NCBI GenBank assembly: GCA_045533115.1
Contig: JAZSHF010000005.1
Span: 3,268 to 67,267, forward strand
Length of the DNA stretch: 64,000 bases
Reading direction: 5' to 3'
DNA from: Eubacteriales bacterium
Lineage (GTDB): Bacteria > Bacillota > Clostridia > Oscillospirales > CAG-272
Part shown: positions 2,869 to 62,581 of the stretch, one piece after another
How positions within the stretch are numbered: position 1 is the stretch's first letter
Layout: each line of letters opens with the position of its first letter
Made by a program: the position numbers and the translations under genes
Notes under the pieces: model-generated
Database searches by the model: none
What the model saw: only the letters and a program-made list of their open reading frames with translations
What the model was told of the DNA's origin: nothing

Positions 2869-2886
2869 CTTTAATTTTATAAATAA

Positions 2887-3123
2887 TTATTCAACTCTGC
2901 CGATGAGGGCTTGCGTTGATATCTGGGAAAAGTATACTTTTCCGTCGTTTGTGAGTATAAATGACTTCGGGACTTCTTCAAAAAGCGCTTCTGTCATACC
3001 GTTTTTTTCTCTACCCTTGAGAAATTTTTTCGTATCGGCAGATACGGTTGCCGTATCCATATCGAAGATGCCGATTATGTTTTTAAGGAGTAGATTTTTG
3101 TTGTTTCCTGCATGTAAGAACAT
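2887..3123 (-). CDS. DUF370 / RemB(YaaB)-like small protein
   Basis: 78-aa ORF between recF and gyrB, the position of remB/yaaB in Bacillus. Contains the IIGIFD...S motif typical of that family (from memory). Confidence 0.75.
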   Translation of the reverse strand: MFLHAGNNKNLLLKNIIGIFDMDTATVSADTKKFLKGREKNGMTEALFEEVPKSFILTNDGKVYFSQISTQALIGRVE

Positions 3124-3179
3124 ACTGCGTAGGCCTTTCTTTTTTATCTCATATTTTCACAAATGTTTATAAATTCATT

Positions 3180-3248
3180 GTAGGTGCGATCATTGGTCGC
3201 CCGAAAAATTGCCTTAAGAATGGACGGGCGACCAATGGTCGCCCCTAC
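3180..3248. repeat. REP doublet (inverted pair of GTAG + GGGCGACCA hairpins)
   Basis: GTAGGTGCGATCATTGGTCGCCC at 3180-3202 and GGGCGACCAATGGTCGCCCCTAC at 3226-3248, separated by a 23-nt spacer. Confidence 0.85.
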
Positions 3249-3274: not shown

Positions 3275-4342
3275 TTAATTTACAACCCCGTTATTTACGT
3301 CATAAACCTTACAGGGTGTATCAATTTTATCGCAGGACGTGATAATTACCTGCTTATTTTCGATACCGGAGAGGAGATATTCGCGTCTTTTTTCGTCAAG
3401 CTCACTCAGAATATCGTCAAAGAGGAACACGGGATAGGTTCCGCTGATCTCGCGTGAAATTTCGCCCTCGGCGATCTTCATTGAAAGAGCAACCGATCTT
3501 TGCTGTCCCTGCGAGCCGAAGGACCGAGCCTCGCGGCCGTTCAGCATTATTTCTATATCGTCCTTATGAGTGCCGTAGAGTGTCGCGCCGAACCGAAGCT
3601 CACGGTCACGGTTTTCATTAAGCAGCGAAAGATATTCTTCCTTCGTTTTTCGCGTCTGATAGGTCAGCTTAACACTTTCTTTACCCGCCGTCATATCGTT
3701 TATTATCTCATCTGCCGAAACGCTCAGGCGCGATATATAAATATCACGCTTTTCCGAGATAATTTCAGCCTCGGCGGCAAGCTGCTCGGCGTAAACGTCG
3801 GAAAGCAGGAAAATATTATCATCTCGGCGGTCACGCGCCATTTTTATAAGCGCGTTTCGCTGTGAAAGAAACGCGTTATATCTCTGAAGCGACCTTAGAT
3901 ACTCGGTATCGGTCTGTGACAGGGCATTGTCTATAAATTTTCGTCTTACCGACGGGCCGTCCTTGACTATCGACAGATGCTCGGGGCAGAAAAGCACGGC
4001 GCGGAATTTTCCGACGACCTCGGATAGGCGCGTTATGGGAGCTCCGTTCAGCGAGCAAAACCTTTTTCCGAGCCGAGGCACGAAGCGGAAAAGCATTTCG
4101 TTTTCGCGCTTGCCGTCGAAAAAGGTCATTTCTATCTGTCCGTATTCAGCCCCGAAGCGTACAAGCTCGTTTTCGTGCACCGTACGGAAGGATCGCCCTC
4201 CCGCGAAGAAATACACTCCTTCGAGTATATTCGTCTTTCCCTGCCCATTTAAGCCGTTAAAAACGGTAACTGTGGGTGATATTTCAAGTGACGCCTCTTC
4301 GATATTACGAAAATTCTTATATACGAGCTTACGGCAGATCAT
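3275..4342 (-). CDS. recF: DNA replication/repair protein RecF
   Basis: 355-aa ORF with the Walker A motif GLNGQGKTN and the SMC-like signature FGSQGQQRS. Overlaps the dnaN stop by 4 nt. Confidence 0.96.
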   Translation of the reverse strand: MICRKLVYKNFRNIEEASLEISPTVTVFNGLNGQGKTNILEGVYFFAGGRSFRTVHENELVRFGAEYGQIEMTFFDGKRENEMLFRFVPRLGKRFCSLNGAPITRLSEVVGKFRAVLFCPEHLSIVKDGPSVRRKFIDNALSQTDTEYLRSLQRYNAFLSQRNALIKMARDRRDDNIFLLSDVYAEQLAAEAEIISEKRDIYISRLSVSADEIINDMTAGKESVKLTYQTRKTKEEYLSLLNENRDRELRFGATLYGTHKDDIEIMLNGREARSFGSQGQQRSVALSMKIAEGEISREISGTYPVFLFDDILSELDEKRREYLLSGIENKQVIITSCDKIDTPCKVYDVNNGVVN

Positions 4343-5605: not shown

Positions 5606-5800
5606 TGTGGATAAGCCTGAAAACCGTTATGCCAAACTGCTTTTCGGGGGGTAAATGTCGAAATTTGTCTGTGGATAAGCTGTTCGATTTTTTGAAAGTT
5701 GTCCACATGGGGATAATGTGTTGATAAGCTGGGGAAAAATGTTGATAATTTTTGAATTAAAATAGAATTATCTACATTATAGGTAATATTTGCCACGTTG
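5606..5800. promoter_or_regulatory. oriC-type DnaA-box cluster with AT-rich tract in the dnaA-dnaN spacer
   Basis: Perfect TGTGGATAA at 5606-5614 and 5670-5678. One-mismatch boxes at 5699-5707 (TTGTCCACA), 5719-5727 and 5740-5748 (TGTTGATAA), and 5768-5776 (TTATCTACA). AT-rich stretch at 5745-5790. Confidence 0.8.
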
Positions 5801-5804
5801 TCTT

Positions 5805-6237
5805 ACCTTCTCCTTAGGGAGAATGGGGGCCACCGAAGGTGGTGGATGAGGTGTTACATAGGTAATGAATTTTTTCTTAACTTTTCTTACTCGTGTAAGA
5901 AAAGTTACAAAAGAACCACGCCAAGGGGCAAACCGGTTTGAATTTTGCCTTCGCAAAATTCTGCACACGTTTTCCCCTTTGGAAACCCCTTTCCTTTAAG
6001 GAAGATTTGTGACGTTTCATCGTAGGGCGGGGGCTTGCTCCCGCCGTTGCAAAGAAAAGTAACATCGTTTTTGTGCGGGCGAGCAATGCTCGCCCCTACG
6101 AGAGAGTTTGGAATTTCATTGTAGGGGCGACCAATGGTCGCCCGTTTTCGTGGCGGTTTAATGCGTGCGACCATTGGTCGCACGTTTTAAGTAAAGTAAC
6201 ACCGCTTTGGAACGGCGGGAGCAAGCCCCCGCCCTAC
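5805..6237. repeat. Composite repeat block: left-arm half element, a 130-bp family-E copy, and five REP hairpins
   Basis: Left arm at 5805-5867. Family E at 5878-6004. REPs at 6022-6045 (GTAG GGCGGGGGCTTGCTCCCGCC), 6077-6099 (GGGCGAGCAATGCTCGCCC CTAC), 6121-6143 (GTAG GGGCGACCAATGGTCGCCC), 6165-6183 (a degenerate copy) and 6214-6237 (GGCGGGAGCAAGCCCCCGCC CTAC). Confidence 0.85.
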
Positions 6238-7657: not shown

Positions 7658-7796
7658 AGCTTAACTCACTAATGAATATAATTATAGTTATATATATTAT
7701 ATTATATATAGGGAAAAATTTCAAGGTTTTAGCATCGCAAGGACTATTTTTTAACAAAATGTTTACAAAATAAAGAGATATGCGGAGCACTTAATT

Positions 7797-8287
7797 ACCT
7801 TCTCCAGTGGGAGAAGGTGTCAACCGAAGGTTGACGGATGAGGTGTTTCATAGGTAATGCAACTGACTTGATATAATAATATTTTAATTGTACAATACAC
7901 CTCATCCGACTTCGTTCGGCTTCGCCTCTCTCAGCCACCTTCTCCCGTTGGAGAAGGTAAAACAACGCGGCGAAGCATCGGAACGTCCTCTTGCCTTCCC
8001 CTCAGGGGAAGGTGTCGGTCAAAGGGTTCCTGAGGTGTAGGTTGCGAAGCAACCGTTATACCTTCTCCAGCGGGAGAAGGGGGACCACCGAAGGTGGTGG
8101 ATGAGGTGTAGGTTGCGAAGCAACCGCTATACCTTCTCCAGCGGGAGAAGGGGGACCGCGATAGCGGTGGATGAGGTGTAGGTTGCGGAGCAACCGCATC
8201 AAAAACAATGTAACATCACACCCGAACACCTCATCCGACTTCGTTCGGCTTCGCCTCACTCAGCCACCTTCTCCCGTTGGAGAAGGT
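7797..8287. repeat. Largest mosaic repeat block: one full element followed by an element with its internal left-arm module tandemly duplicated
   Basis: Full element at 7797-7967. The second block at 7990-8287 contains units of about 70 bp starting at 8032, 8103 and 8173. Confidence 0.9.
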
Positions 8288-8311
8288 ATGACAATGCGTC
8301 GAAGCTTCCTT

Positions 8312-8345
8312 AAAACAAAAAAACAAGACCTCCTTCGAGGTCTTG
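8312..8345 (-). terminator. Intrinsic terminator of rny
   Basis: Hairpin CAAGACCTCCTTCGAGGTCTTG at 8324-8345, followed on the minus strand by a U-run (plus-strand A-run at 8312-8323). Confidence 0.75.
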
Positions 8346-8458
8346 CTTCCTTATAAAATAGATCATATATAAAACGGAATTATCCGAGATTTTCGCATAA
8401 GCTCTATATGAAAAATCTATTTCAAAATGCCACTCGGCATAGTAGAGTATAAGAAACC

Positions 8459-10009: not shown

Positions 10010-10154
10010 AATACACCTCCTTGTTATTAAATTTTAATAATTTCGTATGTAAAGTAAATAAAAATACTTATACAAAATATATTATAATAAAAATATATTG
10101 AAATGTCAAGTGCGATAAGAAATGTTTTTTAGTTTCTTTCATTATTATATATGG

Positions 10155-10402
10155 CAAGCATCGGAACGTCCTCTTGCCTTCCCCTTGGGGAAGGTGTCGG
10201 GCAAAGGGTTCCTGAGGTGTAGGTTGCGTAGCAACCGTTATACCTTCTCCAGCGGGAGAAGGGGGACCGCGATAGCGGTGGATGAGGTGTTTCATAGGTA
10301 ATGCAACTGACTTGATATAATAATATTTTAATTGTACAATACACCTCATCCGACTTCGTTCGGCTTCGCCTCACTCAGCCACCTTCTCCCACTGGAGAAG
10401 GT
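10155..10402. repeat. Mosaic hairpin repeat, near-identical to parts of 7797-8287
   Basis: Shares the flank GCAAGCATCGGAACGTCCTCTTGCC, H1/H2/box modules and the core TTCATAGGTAATGCAACTGACTTGATATAATAATATTTTAATTGTACAAT. Confidence 0.9.
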
Positions 10403-10466
10403 AGTACATCGTAGCGAAGTGTCGAACCCCCTCAAAAAAATTTTTGAAAAAATTTTGAAAAACCTA

Positions 10467-11876: not shown

Positions 11877-12027
11877 ACCCTTCTCCAGCGGGAGAAGGGG
11901 GACCGCGAAGCGGTGGATGAGGTGTTCCAAAGATAAAGTAACTAATTTAATACATAATCAGATTTTTCACCTGACACCTCATCCGTCTGCTCCTTCGTCG
12001 CAGCCACCTTCTCCCACTGGAGAAGGT
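11877..12027. repeat. Mosaic hairpin repeat
   Basis: ACCCTTCTCCAGCGGGAGAAGGG GGACCGCGAAGCGGTGG ATGAGGTGT ... ACACCTCATCC ... CACCTTCTCCCACTGGAGAAGGT. Confidence 0.85.
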
Positions 12028-12084: not shown

Positions 12085-12711
12085 ATGTTAAAGAAGAAGT
12101 TTTTGTTATCCGCATCAATAGTTTTGATCATCAGCTTGCTTGCAATGATGATCTCCGCCGCGCCGCTGGTCAAGGATCTGACATCAGCGAAAATCAGCGC
12201 AAATGAAGCAGAAAATATCGCATTAAGCCGAGTCGGTTTGACGCGTGAAAATATAAGATTCGAGCGTACCGAGATAGACCGCGAAAGAGGAAAGCTCGTA
12301 TGGGAAGTTGAGTTTGAATACGGAAATATTGAGTATTCATTTGAAATCAATGCCGTTACGGGTCAAATAATTCGCGAAGAAATAGAGCAGGAAAGAAAAC
12401 CCGCTCCGACACAGCCCCCCGTAACAGATCCGCCCGTTACCGAGCCACCTGCAACTGAACCTCCCGCAACCGAGCCGACTCCCGAAAAGCCCGTTTCGAC
12501 CGAGATCACGCGCGATGATGCGATAAGTATCGCACTTTCCGAAGCGGGACTCACCCGCGAGCAGGTCCGCGAGCTTGAAGTCGAAAAGGACTATGAGCGC
12601 GGCACCCTCGTCTACGAGGTCGAATTCGAGCACGGCAGAAACGAGTATAGCTACGAAATACGCGTAAGCGACGGAAAAGTCCTCACTCGCTCGATCGAAA
12701 ACGACGATTGA
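12085..12711 (+). CDS. Secreted/anchored protein with two PepSY domains joined by a Pro/Thr-rich linker
   Basis: 208-aa ORF with an N-terminal hydrophobic helix. Two internal repeats match each other (A..IALS..GLTRE......E.D.ERG.LV.EVEFE.G..EYS.EI). Confidence 0.8.
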   Translation: MLKKKFLLSASIVLIISLLAMMISAAPLVKDLTSAKISANEAENIALSRVGLTRENIRFERTEIDRERGKLVWEVEFEYGNIEYSFEINAVTGQIIREEIEQERKPAPTQPPVTDPPVTEPPATEPPATEPTPEKPVSTEITRDDAISIALSEAGLTREQVRELEVEKDYERGTLVYEVEFEHGRNEYSYEIRVSDGKVLTRSIENDD

Positions 12712-12721
12712 GCGTATAAAT

Positions 12722-12765
12722 AAAAAGCATCGCAATAGCTATTATAGCTATTGCGATGCTTTTTT
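12722..12765. terminator. Bidirectional intrinsic terminator
   Basis: 14-bp stem GCATCGCAATAGCT / AGCTATTGCGATGC flanked by an A-run and a T-run. Serves the convergent genes on both sides. Confidence 0.8.
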
Positions 12766-12769
12766 AGTA

Positions 12770-12916
12770 TTACAGCATATCAACGCTCTGAGTTGAAGGG
12801 CTACTGAGATTTACATCAATAGAAAACCCTTCTTTCTTGTCATCACAGGACACAAAAGACAGCGCAGTCAAAGACAAACACAGAAGAACAAGGATCGCAG
12901 TAACAATTTTTTTCAT
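12770..12916 (-). CDS. Small putative lipoprotein (48 aa, not in the ORF track)
   Basis: My translation is MKKIVTAILVLLCLSLTALSFVSCDDKKEGFSIDVNLSSPSTQSVDML. It has a signal peptide and lipobox-like FVSC, the RBS GTGAGG 8 nt upstream, and a terminator directly downstream. Confidence 0.5.
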   Translation of the reverse strand: MKKIVTAILVLLCLSLTALSFVSCDDKKEGFSIDVNLSSPSTQSVDML

Positions 12917-12937
12917 AATAAACCTCACAAATTTTAT

Positions 12938-12957
12938 TTGCACCTATATAGGTGCAA
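12938..12957. promoter_or_regulatory. Perfect 20-bp palindrome, candidate operator in a divergent promoter region
   Basis: TTGCACCTATATAGGTGCAA lies between the small lipoprotein gene and the XRE regulator gene. Confidence 0.45.
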
Positions 12958-13028
12958 TATTATTCTACCACGCGTTTATAATAATGTCAAGAGTTTTGTT
13001 CTTAAATAAGTGCAAAAAAGAGGTTATT

Positions 13029-13253
13029 ATGAACGCAGAGGTCGAAAAAAGGATCGGCAAAAACATTCGGGAATTGCGCGAACGCGCGAAAATGACGCAG
13101 GAGGAGCTGGCGGCGAAGCTGCAAATCCGCGGTTGCGATATTACCCGCAGCGCCGTTGCAAAGATCGAGGTCGGTCAGCGTCACCTTTACCCCGATGAGA
13201 TCGTTCTGATAAAAGAAATCCTTTCCGTCAGCTATGACGAAATATTTGATTAA
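13029..13253 (+). CDS. XRE-family helix-turn-helix transcriptional regulator
   Basis: HTH signature IRELRERAKMTQEELAAKL......S..AKIE.G. I chose the start at 13029 (RBS AAAAGAGG). The track's 12837 start would overlap the lipoprotein gene and the promoter region. Confidence 0.85.
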   Translation: MNAEVEKRIGKNIRELRERAKMTQEELAAKLQIRGCDITRSAVAKIEVGQRHLYPDEIVLIKEILSVSYDEIFD

Positions 13254-13273
13254 AAATAAAATTGGCGATTATA

Positions 13274-13768
13274 ATGGAAAATGAATTACCGAAGAGGAAA
13301 CAGAATCGTTTACGAAGGTATGATTACAGCTCTTGCGGCGCATATTTTATTACGATATGCACGTTTGAAAGGCGCAATTATTTTTGGGATAACCTTGTAG
13401 GGGCGACCATTGGTCGCCCGAGTGACGTTGCGTTGTCTCAATACGGAAAAATTGTTGATGAGGCGATAATCGGTATATCCTCAATATACCCTGCGTTGTC
13501 TATCGAAAAATACGTGATCATGCCTAATCACGTTCATTTGTTATTAAGAATACGTGCCGACGAATTCGGGCGACCAATGGTCGCCCCTACAATTTCGCGG
13601 ATTGTAAATCAGTTTAAGGGATACGTTGCGAAACGAACAGAAAAGAACATCTGGCAAAAATCCTTTCACGACCACGTTATCCGTAATTATGAGGATTACG
13701 AAGAACATATAAAATACATCCACGAAAACCCAGCTCAGTGGTACTTCGACGAGTTATATTCAGAATAA
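13274..13768 (+). CDS. REP-associated tyrosine transposase-like protein (IS200/Y1 HUH superfamily)
   Basis: HUH motif in IMPNHVHLLL (HVH codons at 13529-13537) and a C-terminal Tyr helix, YIHENPAQW. About 165 aa, with no IS ends. The start could be ATG 13274 or TTG 13262. Confidence 0.8.
   Translation: MENELPKRKQNRLRRYDYSSCGAYFITICTFERRNYFWDNLVGATIGRPSDVALSQYGKIVDEAIIGISSIYPALSIEKYVIMPNHVHLLLRIRADEFGRPMVAPTISRIVNQFKGYVAKRTEKNIWQKSFHDHVIRNYEDYEEHIKYIHENPAQWYFDELYSE
13397..13420 (+). repeat. REP unit inside the RAYT-like CDS (GTAG + GGGCGACCATTGGTCGCCC)
   Basis: GTAGGGGCGACCATTGGTCGCCCG, in frame and encoding VGATIGRP. The same unit occurs at 19740-19762; 6121-6143 carries the same stem with the opposite loop (AA). 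Confidence 0.9.
13567..13590 (-). repeat. Inverted REP unit inside the RAYT-like CDS
   Basis: CGGGCGACCAATGGTCGCCCCTAC, in frame and encoding GRPMVAPT. It is the exact reverse complement of 13397-13420 and matches the intergenic copy at 3226-3248. Confidence 0.9.
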
Positions 13769-15198: not shown

Positions 15199-15250
15199 TA
15201 TATTATCCTCAATTTATTATATACTTATAAAATCTTTGGGACGTTGTCTT

Positions 15251-15662
15251 ACCTTCTCCTGAGGGAGAAGGCGTCATTCGCTACGCGAATGACGGATGAG
15301 GTGTCGAGGGGTTCCCCGAAAACGAGCTTGTCGAGTTTTTGGGGGTTCCTGAGGTGTCTAAAAAGGGAACATACTCCTCATCCACCACTACGAGCGAACC
15401 CCAAACGCTCATTTCATTCGCATTTGGGAACCCCTCGCGTGGTCCCCCTTCTCCCACAGGAGAAGGTATTTAGTAACATCTTTTTGTCACGGCGGGAGCA
15501 GGCCCCCGCCCTACTACAAACAACGTGTCGAAGTATCAGGGCGTTGTCTTGCCTTCCCCTTGGGGAAGGTGTCAACCGAAGGTTGACGGATGAGGTGTCT
15601 AAAAGGGAACATACTCCTCATCCACCACCTTCGGTGGTCCCCCTTCTCCCTCAGGAGAAGGT
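15251..15662. repeat. Two mosaic hairpin repeats plus one REP, between two genes of the decarboxylase cluster
   Basis: Elements at 15251-15467 and 15551-15662 share the centre CTAAAAAGGGAACATACTCCTCATCCACCAC. REP GGCGGGAGCAGGCCCCCGCC CTAC at 15491-15514. Confidence 0.85.
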
Positions 15663-19350: not shown

Positions 19351-19426
19351 TGGCGCGCCCTAGAGGATTCGAACCTCTGACCTACCGGTTCGTAGCCGGG
19401 CACTCTATCCGCTGAGCTAAGGGCGC
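19351..19426 (-). tRNA. tRNA-Arg (anticodon ACG), CCA encoded
   Basis: The reverse complement GCGCCCTTAGCTCAGCGGATAGAGTGCCCGGCTACGAACCGGTAGGTCAGAGGTTCGAATCCTCTAGGGCGCGCCA folds as a cloverleaf with anticodon loop CTACGAA. Confidence 0.93.
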
Positions 19427-19543: not shown

Positions 19544-19707
19544 ACCTTCTCCGGCGGGAGAAGGTGGCGGCGAAGCCGACGGATGAGGTGTCAAAGAGTA
19601 TATCAAAGCGAATGTAATGAGCTTTGACAATTTCTTTGCTCTCTGAATTGGGAACCTACTCCTCATCCACCACCTTCGGTGGTCCCCCTTCTCCCTCAGG
19701 AGAAGGT
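19544..19707. repeat. Mosaic hairpin repeat
   Basis: ACCTTCTCCGGCGGGAGAAGGT GGCGGCGAAGCCGAC GGATGAGGTGT ... CTCCTCATCC ACCACCTTCGGTGGT CCCCCTTCTCCCTCAGGAGAAGGT. Confidence 0.85.
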
Positions 19708-19739
19708 AAGATATTGCGGCGAAGCGTTCAAACGTTCTC

Positions 19740-19809
19740 GTAGGGGCGACCATTGGTCGCCCGCTCGTTAGTGATGCAATTTTTGCGGGCGAGCAATGCT
19801 CGCCCCTAC
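19740..19809. repeat. REP doublet with two different stems
   Basis: GTAGGGGCGACCATTGGTCGCCC at 19740-19762 and GGGCGAGCAATGCTCGCCCCTAC at 19787-19809. Confidence 0.85.
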
Positions 19810-20306: not shown

Positions 20307-20374
20307 AGTGTTACCTCTGTGGGGGAAAAAAGAATGGAGACCTCTTACTTTAGAAGGGTTTGCCGCATTGTTAG

Positions 20375-20552
20375 CCTTCCCTTTGGGGAAGGGGGACCGC
20401 AGGCGTTGCGCCTGCGGTGGATGAGGTTAGCTGTCGAAGACAGCGTTACATATCAAATGTAACATTACTTGAAAAAACGGTTGCTTCGCAACCTAACCTC
20501 ATCCGACTTCGTTCGGCGTTGCCTCACTTAGCCACCTTCCCCAAGGGGAAGG
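20375..20552. repeat. Mosaic hairpin repeat (CCTTCCCC-type)
   Basis: Left arm with GGATGAGGT TAG CTGTCGAAGACAGCG. Centre TTACATATCAAATGTAACATTAC. Right arm with GGTTGCTTCGCAACC TAACCTCATCC ... CCTTCCCCAAGGGGAAGG. Confidence 0.85.
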
Positions 20553-20615
20553 CAAGACGAAATGTCGAAGCGTTTTAATGTTCGTGATAGAGTGAGCGTG
20601 GGAGCCTATTACGCC

Positions 20616-24267: not shown

Positions 24268-24436
24268 GGGAGGGGAACCCCCTCCCCTATTAAATGTAGA
24301 TTGAACGTTGTCTACCTTCTCCAGTGGGAGAAGGTGTCAACCGAAGGTTGACGGATGAGGTGTCTAAAAAGTGAACTTACTCCTCATCCACCACAGGCGT
24401 TCCGCCTGCGGTCCCCCTTCTCCCTCAGGAGAAGGT
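24268..24436. repeat. Degenerate REP followed by a mosaic hairpin repeat
   Basis: GGGAGGGGAACCCCCTCCCCTAT at 24268-24290. The element at 24314-24436 has GTCAACCGAAGGTTGAC and the centre CTAAAAAGTGAACTTACTC. Confidence 0.85.
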
Positions 24437-24471
24437 AAACAACGCGGCGAAACGCTCGAATTTTCGAAATC

Positions 24472-25652: not shown

Positions 25653-25694
25653 GGGGAACCTCTTTATGATAAAAATTATAGTGAACGCTGTTGG

Positions 25695-25927
25695 CCTTCC
25701 CCTTTGGGAAGGTGTCAACCGATAGGTTGACGGATGAGGTTAGCCGTCGCAGACGGCGTTACCAAAGGAAAGTAACATTGTTTTTGTGCGGGAGGGGAGC
25801 CCCTCCCCTACGGAGATAGAGGGGACGCTGTTAGCCTTCCCCTTGGGGAAGGTGTCGGTCGAAGACCGACGGATGAGGTGTAGGCTGCAACGCCGCCATA
25901 CGGAGGTGTCACGAACGTTGTCTTCCT
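25695..25927. repeat. Two left-arm modules with one REP between them
   Basis: First left arm at 25695-25760, then the connector AAAGTAACATTGTTTTTGT, then REP GGGAGGGGAGCCCCTCCC CTAC at 25790-25811. Second left arm at 25835-25900. Confidence 0.85.
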
Positions 25928-27037: not shown

Positions 27038-27169
27038 AGTATTTTCTCTTTCGGGACTATATATTTATAGTTATACAGTATAATTATAATAGAAAACAAA
27101 AATTTTTTCAACAGTTTTGTGAAATATTATGTTTGTTTACAAAATTGGATTTTTGCGGTACGTTGTTTT

Positions 27170-27520
27170 ACCTTCTCCAGCGGGAGAAGGTGTCAACCGA
27201 AGGTTGACGGATGAGGTGTTCCACGGGAAATGCATTTGATTTGACGTAATCAAATTTTAATTGTACAATACACCTCATCCGACTTCGTTCGGCTTCGCCT
27301 CTCTCAGCCACCTTCTCCCGCTGGAGAAGGTAAAAAAACGCCCCGAAGCTTCGCCACGTCGTTAGCCTTCCCCTTGGGGGAGGTGGCGAGTGAAACGAGG
27401 CGGATGAGGTTAGGATGCGAAGCATCCGTCACAAAAATAATGTTACTTAATTAATACAACGCCGTCTGCGACGGCTAACCTCATCCGACGCCTTCGGCGC
27501 CACCTTCCCCAAGGGGAAGG
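27170..27520. repeat. Two adjacent complete mosaic hairpin repeats
   Basis: Element 1 at 27170-27333 (ACCTTCTCC type). Element 2 at 27365-27520 (CCTTCCCC type) has the centre CACAAAAATAATGTTACTTAATTAATAC. Confidence 0.9.
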
Positions 27521-27552
27521 CAAGGGTGTGGCGTAGCTTTCTGATCTCCCTA

Positions 27553-29308: not shown

Positions 29309-29467
29309 AAAAAGACCCTCGCAGAACGAGGGTCATCTTTTCTTCAAATTAACTCTCATCTGCCCGGATTTGGCACCTTTTTGGTTTATTTTGGGCGTTT
29401 ATCACGCTTAAACCAAATGGTTGTCGGGCTTCACAGGGCCGGTCCCTCCGCCACTCTTGATAAGAAC
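29309..29467 (-). promoter_or_regulatory. SAM-I (S-box) riboswitch with terminator, in the metK leader
   Basis: The minus strand reads TTCTTATCAAGAGTGGCGGAGGGACCGGCCCTGTGAAGCCCGACAACC...GGTGCCAAATCCGGGCAGATGAGAG. The terminator GACCCTCGTTCTGCGAGGGTC followed by TTTTT comes next. Confidence 0.9.
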
Positions 29468-29502: not shown

Positions 29503-29559
29503 CCTTTTTTGAGAAAATTTTATTTGAACAACGCGGCGGAGCATCGGGGGGGTTGTTAG

Positions 29560-29750
29560 CCTCCCCCTTGGGGAAGGTGTCGGTCGAAGACCGACGGATG
29601 AGGTGTAGCCGCGAAGCGGCGTTACCAAAGCAAAGTAACATTGTTTTTGTAACGGATGCTTCGCATCCTAACCTCATCCGACTTCGTTCGGCTTCGCCTC
29701 TCTCAGCCACCTTCCCCAAGGGGAAGGCTAGATGCGACCGATGGTCGCCA
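29560..29750. repeat. Complete mosaic hairpin repeat plus a degenerate REP
   Basis: Left arm, then GTAG CCGCGAAGCGGC, then the connector GTTACCAAAGCAAAGTAACATTGTTTTTGTAAC, then GGATGCTTCGCATCC TAACCTCATCC and the right arm. GCGACCGATGGTCGC at 29734-29748. Confidence 0.9.
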
Positions 29751-37668: not shown

Positions 37669-37748
37669 AACGTGCCTCCTTTCGTGATGATTTTGATTTT
37701 TTAACGTCCGATTTCCCTTCCGTTAAGGGAGATGCGCCGCGATGTTAG

Positions 37749-37902
37749 CCTTCCCCAGCGGGGGAAGGGGGACCGCGGGCGCTGCGCCCGCGGTGGATGA
37801 GGTGTTCTAAAAGTGAAGTAACATTACTTCTGGCACACGGCGGCTTTGCCGCCTAACCTCATCCGACTTCGCTTCGCTCAGCCACCTTCCCCAAGGGGGA
37901 AG
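37749..37902. repeat. Mosaic hairpin repeat
   Basis: CCTTCCCCAGCGGGGGAAGG GGGACCGCGGGCGCTGCGCCCGCGGTGG ATGAGGTGT ... GAAGTAACATTACTTC ... GGCGGCTTTGCCGCC TAACCTCATCC ... CCTTCCCCAAGGGGGAAG. Confidence 0.85.
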
Positions 37903-37910
37903 CCTTTTTA

Positions 37911-39532: not shown

Positions 39533-39666
39533 ACCTTCTCCGGCGGGAGAACGGTGCGGTAGTTTGCGCTTTGCGCAACCTACTATGGTCGGATGAGGTG
39601 TCGAATAAGGGAACTTACTCCTCATCCACCACCTTCGGTGGTTCCCCTTCTCCCTCAGGAGAAGGT
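39533..39666. repeat. Mosaic hairpin repeat
   Basis: ACCTTCTCCGGCGGGAGAACGGT ... GGATGAGGTGT CGAATAAGGGAACTTACTC CTCATCC ACCACCTTCGGTGGT TCCCCTTCTCCCTCAGGAGAAGGT. Confidence 0.85.
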
Positions 39667-39704
39667 CAACAACGTGTCGAAGCATCGGGGCGTTCTTTTG
39701 CCTT

Positions 39705-41844: not shown

Positions 41845-42278
41845 TTCGGTCCCACCTTTTCTCTGAATTTGCATTCCTGCACGCAAAAAACGTGTTCGCG
41901 TGGAAATATTCTAATCCATTTTTTATTGTAGCACAATTTTTTTCATATTGCAATTAGTATTTATAATAAAATTAAAATATTTGTAGAGAAATATACGCGA
42001 GAAGGGGCTGCATAACGTGGCGAAGGGTTAAACCGTTTTCATAGGGGCGTTGCGAATAGCCCGTTTGTTAAACATTTACGGGAGGAGCAAGCCCCCTGCC
42101 CGGGTTGGAGGTGACGCCCTCTTGTCTTCCTCAATGCCGAAAAAACCAACATAGCAAAATCCCCAAAACATTACCTCGAATGATAACAAAATTTTCTCTG
42201 CCCCTTCTTGATTTTACTTCGCTGATGTGTTATACTGTGGTATAATGAGAAATTTTGTTGAAATGTGAGGAAAAAACA

Positions 42279-45263: not shown

Positions 45264-45302
45264 TCGCTTTCCATGTGAGAGAATAGATCGAACGCCCTCT
45301 TG

Positions 45303-45417
45303 CCTTCTCCGGCGGGAGAAGGTGACGCCGAAGGCGTCGGATGAGGTGTAGGTTGCGAAGCAACCGTATGCCAAAACAAAGTAACATCATTTTTGTGCGG
45401 GCGACCATCGGTCGCCC
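45303..45417. repeat. Left arm, GTAG hairpin, connector and REP (half mosaic)
   Basis: CCTTCTCCGGCGGGAGAAGG TGACGCCGAAGGCGTC GGATGAGGT GTAGGTTGCGAAGCAACC ... AAAGTAACATCATTTTTGT GC GGGCGACCATCGGTCGCCC. Confidence 0.85.
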
Positions 45418-60190: not shown

Positions 60191-60553
60191 TTAACTTTTC
60201 TTACTTGTGCAGTTTTTCCCACTTTTCTTTGCTCGTGCAAAGACAAGTTTCAAAAGAAAGTGCGCCAAGGGGCAAACCGCAAAAATTTGCGAAAGCAAAT
60301 TTTTACACGTTTTCCCCTTTGGAATCCCCTTTCGTTCGCCCGTGTCATTCTGAGCGGAGCGCCGCCAGACCCATTCGACCGCGCTCAGGGTGACGGGCGG
60401 CGCGAAGTCGAACGGCGAAGCCGCGCCGTAGGCGGAATCTCGGGCGAGAACCACGTTGTCTAGCCTTCCCCTTGGGGAAGGTGTCGGTCGAAGACCGACG
60501 GATGAGGTGTAGCCGCCGTAGACGGCGTTGTAGGGCGGGGGCTTGCTCCCGCC
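60191..60553. repeat. Composite: family-E copy, a GTCATTCTGAGCGGAGCG-type segment, a mosaic left arm and a REP
   Basis: Family E at 60191-60334. Left arm at 60464-60529. REP GTAG GGCGGGGGCTTGCTCCCGCC at 60530-60553, identical to 6022-6045. Confidence 0.8.
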
Positions 60554-62494: not shown

Positions 62495-62581
62495 GCGGGT
62501 ATGGCGGAATTGGCAGACGCGCTAGATACAGGTTCTAGTGACTTCACGGTCATACAGGTTCAAGTCCTGCTACCCGCACCA
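62495..62581 (+). tRNA. tRNA-Leu (anticodon CAG), class II with long variable arm, CCA encoded
   Basis: GCGGGTATGGCGGAATTGGCAGACGCGCTAGATACAGGTTCTAGTGACTTCACGGTCATACAGGTTCAAGTCCTGCTACCCGCACCA. The anticodon stem is CTAGA/TCTAG and the loop is TACAGGT. Confidence 0.85.

Follow-up and report, generated by a model that had tools for sequence, protein, structure and literature searches.

A family of mosaic two-hairpin repeats of the REP/BIME kind in the dnaA region of an uncultivated gut Clostridia genome

We analyzed a 64-kb stretch of DNA (hereafter, the window) from an uncultivated gut Clostridia genome (Eubacteriales bacterium, contig JAZSHF010000005.1) and found that most of its larger intergenic gaps are occupied by mosaics of one repeated module, which we call the half-element (HE). 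[quoted passage not shown] With a confidence slightly above even, we interpret the HE loci as non-autonomous, mobile repeated DNA modules of the REP/BIME kind. The anatomy and copy number of the modules, the maintenance of their hairpins, their presence or absence at orthologous sites, their insertion into coding sequences, and the occurrence of GTAG-tagged REPs together with a gene resembling those of REP-associated tyrosine transposases (RAYTs) are established.

The repeating unit is 46–62 nt long and comprises two hairpins, H1 and H2, and a single-stranded box, GGAWGAGGT. Each HE starts with one base (A or G), followed by H1, usually a T, H2 and the box. H1 occurs as version 1, CCTTCTCC-N4-GGAGAAGG, and as version 2 (the CCCC type), CCTTCCCC-TT-GGGGAAGG; an initial annotation of this DNA had described two co-varying versions of H1, and a C-G versus U-A pair was indeed observed. 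Its spacing of four nucleotides in both versions applies to the first, but the CCCC version usually has 2 nt between the 8-mers, giving a 7-bp stem with a CTTG loop. The box reads GGATGAGGT, followed by GT or TA, and a variant, GGATGAGGAGT, has a changed base after it. H2 has a conserved base, G-N-C...G-N-C, whereas its tip varies freely in sequence and length yet stays paired. The window genome adds further modules: an outer terminal motif of ~18 nt outside H1; H3, a short GTAG- or TTAG-tagged hairpin that often follows the box and corresponds to the GTAG-type hairpins noticed initially, which are real; and a few types of AT-rich connector between two inward-facing boxes. The module order given in the initial annotation was correct. 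HEs are arranged singly, in tandem or as inverted pairs around the AT-rich connectors. Inverted pairs were found in 13 loci, with boxes that always face each other; the repeating unit is nevertheless the HE, since five loci contain only solitary or same-orientation HEs. At the border of two adjoining elements, the terminal motifs are joined tail to tail, and several composites in the window are near-identical, AT-rich connectors included.

We compared motif counts in the window with expectations from shuffled sequence. The box, searched as GGATGAGGTGT with at most one mismatch, gave 31 matches (0.57 expected), H1 of version 1 gave 26 (0.02 expected), and the terminal motif GCTTCGNCRCGTTGTYTT, with at most three mismatches, gave 15 (0.98 expected), 14 of which adjoin H1. 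A covariance model of H1-H2-box, trained on copies from Clostridia and phages, was then run on the window with filters off and a threshold of at least 25 bits. It detected 39 HEs in 64 kb, all within the 18 loci that had been claimed; each locus has at least one model HE, and the scan of the whole 64-kb window found no HE locus beyond them. The loci fill 16 of the 22 intergenic gaps of at least 100 nt, in keeping with the claim that repeats lie in most gaps, and cover 5.4% of the window, whose HEs are all intergenic. The proposal that a whole element can fold into one long hairpin was also borne out: the full element at 7779–7976 had folding z-scores relative to shuffles of –7.3 as DNA and –7.4 as RNA.

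The focal locus, for example, consists of a full pair (7797–7958) and a second element. The latter has three HEs in direct tandem, each with an H3, as its left arm (7993–8195) and a right arm at 8226–8287. A degenerate left terminal motif (7779–7796, +), recognized in an alignment of the sequences before H1, precedes HE1 (7797–7846, +; H1 at 7798–7817, H2 GTCAACCGAAGGTTGAC, box at 7836–7846; 69.6 bits). The AT-rich connector type 1 (7847–7896) leads to HE2 (7897–7958, –; 45.7 bits), which has a long 30-nt H2 module, GGCTGAGAGAGGCGAAGCCGAACGAAGTC. Two back-to-back terminal motifs, AAAACAACGCGGCGAAGC then ATCGGAACGTCCTCTT, form the tail-to-tail junction of the two elements at 7959–7992. The tandem comprises HE3 (7993–8038, +; CCCC-type H1, variant box TCCTGAGGTGT; 28.9 bits), of which a near-identical copy lies at 10176–10220, HE4 (8060–8109, +; H2 ACCACCGAAGGTGGT; 46.6 bits) and HE5 (8131–8179, +; H2 ACCGCGATAGCGGT; 37.9 bits), each followed by a GTAG-tagged H3 on the same strand (8037–8054, GTAGGTTGCGAAGCAACC; 8108–8125; 8178–8195, GTAGGTTGCGGAGCAACC). 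Connector type 2 (8196–8225), which contains the motif ATGTAACAT, is followed by HE6 (8226–8287, –; long H2 module; 45.7 bits) and by the right terminal motif (8288–8305, –), which reads GCTTCGACGCATTGTCAT on the minus strand. Further tail-to-tail junctions were found at 15517–15550, 27332–27364 and 39667–39699, and connector type 1 recurs at 10291–10340 and 27220–27269. As a separate observation, connector type 1 carries a good sigma-70-like promoter match, TTGATA or TTGACG, a 17-nt spacer and TACAAT, pointing into the right arm (TTGATA-17-TACAAT on the plus strand at 7868–7896; also 10312–10340 and, in a related connector, near 27243–27270). This match may drive a short transcript or be no more than an effect of AT-richness.

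The focal mosaic sits between the rny terminator (8324–8345) and a dnaA promoter match (7724–7696), and the next one (10155–10420) between the divergent promoter matches of rny and fur. Comparison with relatives revealed turnover at such sites. In one relative (L204), whose DnaA is 90% identical, the rny terminator leads straight to the dnaA promoter where the window has a 490-nt mosaic, and the mosaic of another relative (L201) differs from it. In a third (L205), gyrB is preceded by an empty spacer of 29 nt, compared with a 161-nt pair in the window, and L201 and L204 hold pairs at the same place with the other H1 type or another H2 tip. The occupants of the dnaA-dnaN spacer differ in all four relatives. 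Across the syntenic region, 21 HEs were detected by regular expression in 20 kb of the window, compared with two or three per relative's locus. Assemblies of relatives are probably affected as well: for the one with 95% DnaA identity, both contigs (L205 and L206) begin 21 nt upstream of dnaA. Because the contigs start where the window carries its mosaic, HE repeats probably break short-read assemblies.

HEs were also found within phage genes. A genuine phage module (L075), with terminase, SPP1-type portal and Gp15 genes, contains, in its portal open reading frame (ORF), an in-frame tandem array of five HEs at 12690–12975, whose periods are 54 and 63 nt. Portal homology continues on both sides of the array, and a second contig (L092) has the same arrangement. 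Similarly, a phage SNF2 gene (L069, 1376–2875) carries an in-frame insert with an HE, placed between its SNF2 and Helicase_C domains. The insert is present in the SNF2 helicases P0241 and P0242 but absent from P0243, which is 91% identical; overall, helicase homologues of 84–91% identity either lack it or have other inserts at two further sites. Since orthologous spacers are empty or differently occupied in relatives and phage genes carry in-frame insertions, we favor mobile, non-autonomous REP/BIME-like DNA over a dedicated RNA gene. In the gene of P0242 (L292), moreover, the H1 loop of the inserted HE houses another hairpin element, a CTCCC/GGGAG variant. This nesting suggests that elements insert into hairpin loops and that the mosaics arise in this way.

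We further analyzed the variability of H2 in 236 HEs collected by pattern search from the window and all fetched loci. These contained 159 distinct H2 sequences, with a median folding z-score of –3.1 and 82% below –2. In 122 distinct phage-contig copies aligned by the covariance model, six of seven H2 pairs showed changes on both sides and 96.9% of cells were paired; pairing fell to 48–70% when the partner was shifted by one, two or three columns. Variation is confined to the distal part of H2, whose first (G-C) and third (C-G) pairs hardly ever change. H1 is nearly invariant in the same copies, with 99.7% pairing and one co-varying C-G/U-A pair. Because the alignment was fitted to the structure, these pairing counts lean towards it, and the independent folding statistics agree with them. 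As for the initial view that selection acts on H2 structure, the covariation is real and the hairpin is maintained, but this does not amount to proof of action as RNA, and palindrome correction or nested insertion would leave an equal trace. The C(UUCG)G loops reported for many H2 hairpins occur in 11 of 35 window copies; because they occur in only 36 of the 236 copies over all lineages, the UUCG tetraloop is not a family trait.

Since naive ORF calling is unreliable in the phage contigs (67% GC), we examined HE orientation there with a test for ribosome-binding site plus start codon and with checks of third-position GC content and Pfam domains. Almost all HEs of a given phage contig share one orientation and run antisense to the genes. 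In 43 cases the H1 side adjoins, on the opposite strand, a gene start recognized by its ribosome-binding site, start codon and ORF; such a start adjoins the box side on the same strand in five. All three frames are open on the complement strand in 122 of the 196 distinct copies, but in no copy on the HE strand, where TGA occurs in the H1 loop and the box. Coding compatibility can therefore explain part of the orientation bias, although strand-specific insertion would skew the copies in the same way.

These patterns bear on the possibility that HEs are cis-acting RNA structures, such as 3΄ stabilizers, intercistronic processing sites or translation insulators, whose copy number reflects repeated recruitment and not selfish spread. 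Such a role would account for the strong compensatory variation in H2 and H3 with a conserved H2 base, for the phage-contig bias that places the element directly upstream of ribosome-binding sites, and for window copies inside operons, as at 15233–15662 between decarboxylase subunit genes; the box and H1 also appear, as read from their letters, to resemble Shine-Dalgarno and anti-Shine-Dalgarno sequences. However, numerous copies occupy terminator-promoter or divergent-promoter spacers, and no U tract follows the hairpins. Most window copies are inverted pairs, so that any transcript would contain both orientations. Orthologous spacers work without the element, copies occur in frame within coding sequences, no Rfam family matches, and the open complement strand offers a simpler cause for the orientation bias. 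We accordingly regard an RNA function of this type as unlikely.

The junctions provide information on a second alternative. In three comparisons of filled and empty sites and in the alignment of near-identical copies, we found no convincing target-site duplication or defined target sequence; the DNA alignment of filled and empty helicase genes, for example, showed an insert of ~105 nt with no clear duplication. No autonomous element of the form arm-ORF-arm with a transposase was found in ~2.4 Mb of loci. Four pairs of plus- and minus-strand HEs lie 2.4–3 kb apart and do not look autonomous; the one examined (L201/L202) encloses gyrB. If full elements were classical miniature inverted-repeat transposable elements (MITEs), with the arms as terminal inverted repeats mobilized by cut-and-paste through a DDE transposase encoded elsewhere, inverted arms of 60–80 nt around a short AT-rich core, a conserved outer terminal motif and element sizes of 120–200 nt would be expected, as observed. 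Nevertheless, the junctions examined lack target-site duplications, no long transposase-bearing version occurs in the same ~2.4 Mb, and solitary HEs and direct tandems of up to five are common, which a terminal-inverted-repeat mechanism does not make. A MITE origin therefore seems improbable to us.

We also examined how widely the family is distributed. Scanning other genomes, as had been recommended, recovered copies in relatives, phage contigs and Proteobacteria, and the family is thus not private to the window genome. Among the dnaA loci of 80 species representatives, clear HEs were confined to a subset of Oscillospiraceae (Faecousia, with 12, Onthomonas and a few more), and the loci of the close relatives L201, L204 and L205 also carry them. 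The H1...box pattern matched at least 120 IMG/VR contigs, and the covariance model found 233 HEs in 878 kb of these contigs. No cultured phage or plasmid was matched when blastn was run with the entire focal locus; relatives in such records were found only with a short consensus HE query, which matched human-gut phage records. The H1-H2-box core, its H1 and box sequences almost unchanged, was also present in the sufB-sufC spacer of Xanthomonas sacchari (L287) and, often as inverted pairs, on a Pararhizobium plasmid (L288 and L290). The model, trained on Clostridia and phage copies only, scores these proteobacterial copies at 30–37 bits and finds seven to eight HEs in 49 kb of the Pararhizobium plasmid; a blastn search with a Pararhizobium pair matched 257 plasmid records, mostly from Rhizobium and Sinorhizobium. 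The rhizobial relatives may be RIMEs or Sm-repeats.

Rfam at gathering thresholds matched only a SAM riboswitch and tRNAs in the window, and at permissive thresholds gave only chance-level microRNA-type matches for 7700–8400 and the proteobacterial copies, so that the family is absent from Rfam. Literature searches by sequence, taxon and REP/RAYT terms found no description of it. Rhizobia carry annotated intergenic mosaic repeats, namely RIMEs, which are mosaics of large palindromes, and Sm-repeats (PMC2573895), and a survey of GTAG/CGTC repeats does not mention Firmicutes or Clostridia.

The distribution bears on the idea that the repeats are kept by the host as DNA-level sites for a nucleoid protein, gyrase or a similar factor, insulating supercoiling or transcription between neighbouring genes, a role that has been proposed for some E. 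coli BIMEs, with mobility as a secondary property. E. coli BIMEs bind IHF and gyrase, copies in the window lie precisely between transcription units, and H1 and the box are conserved across phyla, which fits a conserved binding partner. Against this, orthologous spacers are empty in close relatives, HE density differs approximately tenfold between relatives, copies occur in phage structural genes, and no binding protein was identified; we consider this explanation just as doubtful as a MITE origin. A CRISPR array was rejected for the tandem HE runs, whose variable part is itself a hairpin, and no cas genes are present among the window proteins scanned.

The mobile-DNA reading has a candidate enzyme in the window. 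A RAYT-like Y1 HUH nuclease gene (13274–13768, +), the only one there, encodes an HVH motif and the tyrosine of a YIHENP motif. Its product matched Pfam Y1_Tnp weakly (21.3 bits) and NCBIfam REP_Tyr_transpos at 70.2 bits (E = 1.7e-19), short of that model's equivalog cutoff of 80, and its best match in the PDB was E. coli TnpA-REP (4ER8, E = 1e-8), with the HUH motif and the tyrosine region aligned. Gut metagenomes hold thousands of homologues of ~70% identity, some labelled transposase or RayT at the source, and one homologue (P0121) is 92% identical to the window protein. Together with an HTH_3 gene, the RAYT-like gene forms an insert of ~1 kb (12837–13768) between PepSY and a decarboxylase alpha-subunit gene; the relative L201, whose DnaA is 90% identical, lacks the insert at that site (4158–4196). 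If P0121 and the L202 locus share a contig, the gene would be situated beyond that locus, and the cassette would have been relocated or rearranged. The window also contains GTAG-REPs (H0), GTAG followed by GGGCGACC-ATT-GGTCGCCC and variants, with 12 heads compared with 1.1 expected and often in inverted pairs. As short GC-rich extragenic palindromes in many copies with a GTAG tag, these have the defining properties of REPs. The modular mosaic of BIME/BOX-like character proposed in the initial annotation is thus upheld by modules that are reused and shuffled, by head-to-head and tail-to-tail alternation, by the lack of an Rfam match and by the RAYT-like gene.

Two GTAG-REPs lie inside the RAYT-like ORF itself: GTAGGGGCGACCATTGGTCGCCC at 13397–13419 (+), encoding VGATIGRP, and an inverted copy at 13568–13590 (–), encoding GRPMVAPT. 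The immediate flanks of the gene contain no REP; the inverted pair within the ORF is instead conserved in homologues, and both peptides are conserved in the family. Homologues with VGAIIDRP (GGGCGATCATTGATCGCCC) keep the DNA palindrome by paired changes (ACC...GGT to ATC...GAT), which therefore indicates selection on the DNA hairpin within the gene. Extragenic copies include two inverted pairs in the dnaA-dnaN spacer (6022+/6099– and 6121+/6237–; 6022–6237), an inverted pair beside an HE mosaic (19740–19809), a solitary copy at 3224–3248 (–) identical to the one inside the gene, and a GGCGGGGGC variant at 15491–15514 (–) in the 15233–15662 mosaic. Of 212 cases in phage contigs, 18 have a same-strand GTAG-REP at most 70 nt upstream of the HE, compared with ~0.8 expected, an approximately twenty-fold excess.

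On this basis, HEs would enter DNA by insertion, multiply in tandem, form inverted pairs and swap modules, producing mosaics that would collect where insertion harms least, namely in terminator-promoter spacers, divergent-promoter spacers and gene gaps. The hairpins would be kept because the element is recognized or processed as a folded single-stranded nucleic acid, most likely as single-stranded DNA at the replication fork. In this genome, the RAYT-like nuclease (13274–13768) would be the best candidate for an enzyme that moves the HEs.

Several observations weigh against interpreting the HEs as REP/BIME-like mobile DNA. The HE core itself lacks a GTAG tag in most lineages; H1 is preceded there by AAAG, CTTG, CAG or similar bases. 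The absence of a convincing target-site duplication or target sequence, described above, also counts here, although all filled/empty comparisons were between genomes of 80–91% identity, so that exact termini are undefined and short duplications could be missed. No enzyme is tied to the HEs: 80 metagenome loci with RAYT homologues showed no HE enrichment, with HEs in one species cluster only and at ~1.85 kb from the gene, and the rhizobial plasmids with the HE core encode no homologue of the window RAYT. A survey of Y1 nucleases found that sparse subclasses including the RAYT class tend to co-occur in Cyanobacteria, Bacteroidetes and Epsilon-, Delta-, Beta- and Gammaproteobacteria, and does not name Alphaproteobacteria or Clostridia among these groups (PMC6006769). 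Finally, H1 and the box are conserved across phyla. This is unusual for REPs and could point to a conserved cellular partner or function instead; REPs normally co-evolve with a lineage-specific RAYT. The RAYT-like enzyme is nonetheless a reasonable candidate for moving HEs in this genome, while the HE core may depend on something else.

A bolder idea, which we offer as a speculation that is possible but not probable, is that the HE core is one ancient, structure-constrained mobile module of Firmicutes, phages and Proteobacteria, whose sequence is held constant by its dependence on a conserved partner and not on a lineage-specific transposase. The all-frame-open complement might let it colonize coding sequences and add peptide segments to phage proteins, and new hairpins might insert into old loops, generating both the nested mosaics and the hypervariable H2. 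As a side case, the RAYT family might carry its own REP pair in its coding sequence, kept at the DNA level.

The remaining loci of the window show the same modules in various arrangements. A composite cut by the window edge (1–66) has an HE at 6–51 (–). Inverted pairs were found at 503–685 (a full pair with terminal motifs; HEs 521–570, + and 618–667, –), upstream of gyrB at 2707–2868 (2707–2754, + and 2800–2855, –), at 11877–12027 (11878–11925, + and 11974–12027, –), at 19544–19725 (19544–19591, + and 19658–19707, –; next to a GTAG-REP pair), at 20374–20571 (20374–20429, + and 20494–20553, –), at 24314–24453 with a very short connector (24314–24363, + and 24379–24436, –), at 29525–29728 (29559–29606, + and 29669–29728, –), at 37748–37904 (37748–37805, + and 37854–37904, –) and at 39533–39699, where a degenerate HE of 13 bits (39534–39597, +) is paired with one at 39617–39666 (–) and back-to-back terminal motifs follow. 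Two adjacent inverted pairs occupy 27170–27521 (27170–27219, +; 27270–27331, –; 27365–27412, +; 27476–27521, –). The composite between the rny and fur promoter matches (10155–10420) contains HEs at 10176–10220 (+), 10242–10290 (+) and 10341–10402 (–), and that between two genes of the decarboxylase operon (15233–15662) has HEs at 15251–15304 (+), 15409–15467 (–, weak), 15551–15598 (+) and 15613–15662 (–). At 25694–25927, two plus-strand HEs (25694–25742 and 25834–25881) have a REP-like hairpin between them (25790–25811). Solitary plus-strand HEs lie in the dnaN-dnaA spacer with a terminal motif (5787–5867; HE 5805–5854), between convergent genes at 45302–45417 (HE 45302–45349, then H3 and a connector) and at 60463–60553 (HE 60463–60510, then H3 and a GTAG-REP at 60530–60553).

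The window represents the dnaA region, with gyrB, recF, dnaN, dnaA and RNase Y (rny) on the minus strand, followed by fur and a Na+-translocating decarboxylase operon. The DnaA protein is identical to an entry of the protein collection searched. The closest DnaA among GTDB species representatives, from an Oscillospiraceae metagenome-assembled genome, is only 70% identical, and animal-gut metagenomes hold relatives with 90–95% identity. Genes from 8 to 42 kb all head towards dnaA, and their orientation flips from the minus to the plus strand at a 368-nt gap without an HE (41887–42254). Given that gene orientation, the replication origin may not be adjacent to dnaA, or the region may be rearranged. 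GC skew tracks the coding strand across the window, and the direction of replication therefore cannot be read from it. A SAM-I riboswitch (29353–29466, –) lies 93 nt from an HE pair, and there are two tRNA genes (19354–19426, – and 62495–62578, +). The long plus-strand ORFs at 137–406 and 2903–3172 are probably spurious; at 2884–3123 (–), a RemA-like gene was placed by alignment to relatives. Other ORFs that overlap repeats, for example 10068–10349 and 27168–27425, are likely repeat artefacts.

To our knowledge, REP/BIME-type systems have been studied almost entirely in Proteobacteria, and the window provides a dense, well-resolved example from uncultivated gut Clostridia with a candidate enzyme next to the repeats. 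The cross-phylum core, the hypervariable but always paired hairpin and the in-frame colonization of phage genes make the family worth following. In practice, HEs can mimic small-RNA or CRISPR-like signals and inflate ORF calls. If the cross-phylum homology is true, it would offer a handle on how such repeats persist and what recognizes them.

Among known systems, E. coli REP/BIME with RayT shares with the HE family its extragenic GC-rich hairpins in high copy number and their alternating orientation, head to head with few connector types and tail to tail with paired terminal motifs. The GTAG-tagged hairpins (H0 and H3) and the single RAYT-like Y1 HUH gene in the window, whose best solved relative is 4ER8, extend the likeness. 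In contrast, the main unit here combines two hairpins, one of them hypervariable, with a box and lacks a GTAG tag, its core is shared across phyla and the host belongs to Clostridia; moreover, the REPs lie inside the RAYT-like ORF instead of flanking it, and RAYT homologues are weakly linked to HEs in genomes. The REPINs of Pseudomonas (PMC3116915) likewise have an inverted doublet around a short spacer as the apparent replicating unit, with solitary units that look like remnants. However, each REPIN arm consists of one short REP that hardly varies inside a genome, whereas the arms here have three or four parts and often a different H2 within a pair, and direct tandem arrays are common.

Pneumococcal BOX elements, compared by description, are similar in that the end modules pair with each other and an internal module can repeat in tandem, but their sequences and host group differ and they have no hypervariable hairpin. 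Palindromic repeats in frame within genes that they do not disrupt, as seen here in phage portal and SNF2 helicase genes, are also known from Rickettsia palindromic elements and from BOX, RUP and SPRITE (reviewed in PMC3184786); those elements show no sequence relationship to HEs, and the in-frame hosts here are phages, whereas the window copies are all intergenic. RIME1/2, compared by description, and the Sm-repeats of Sinorhizobium may correspond to the rhizobial relatives of the HEs; rhizobial replicons carry the same H1-H2-box architecture, although the rhizobial copies differ from those of the window in GC content, connectors and accessory modules.

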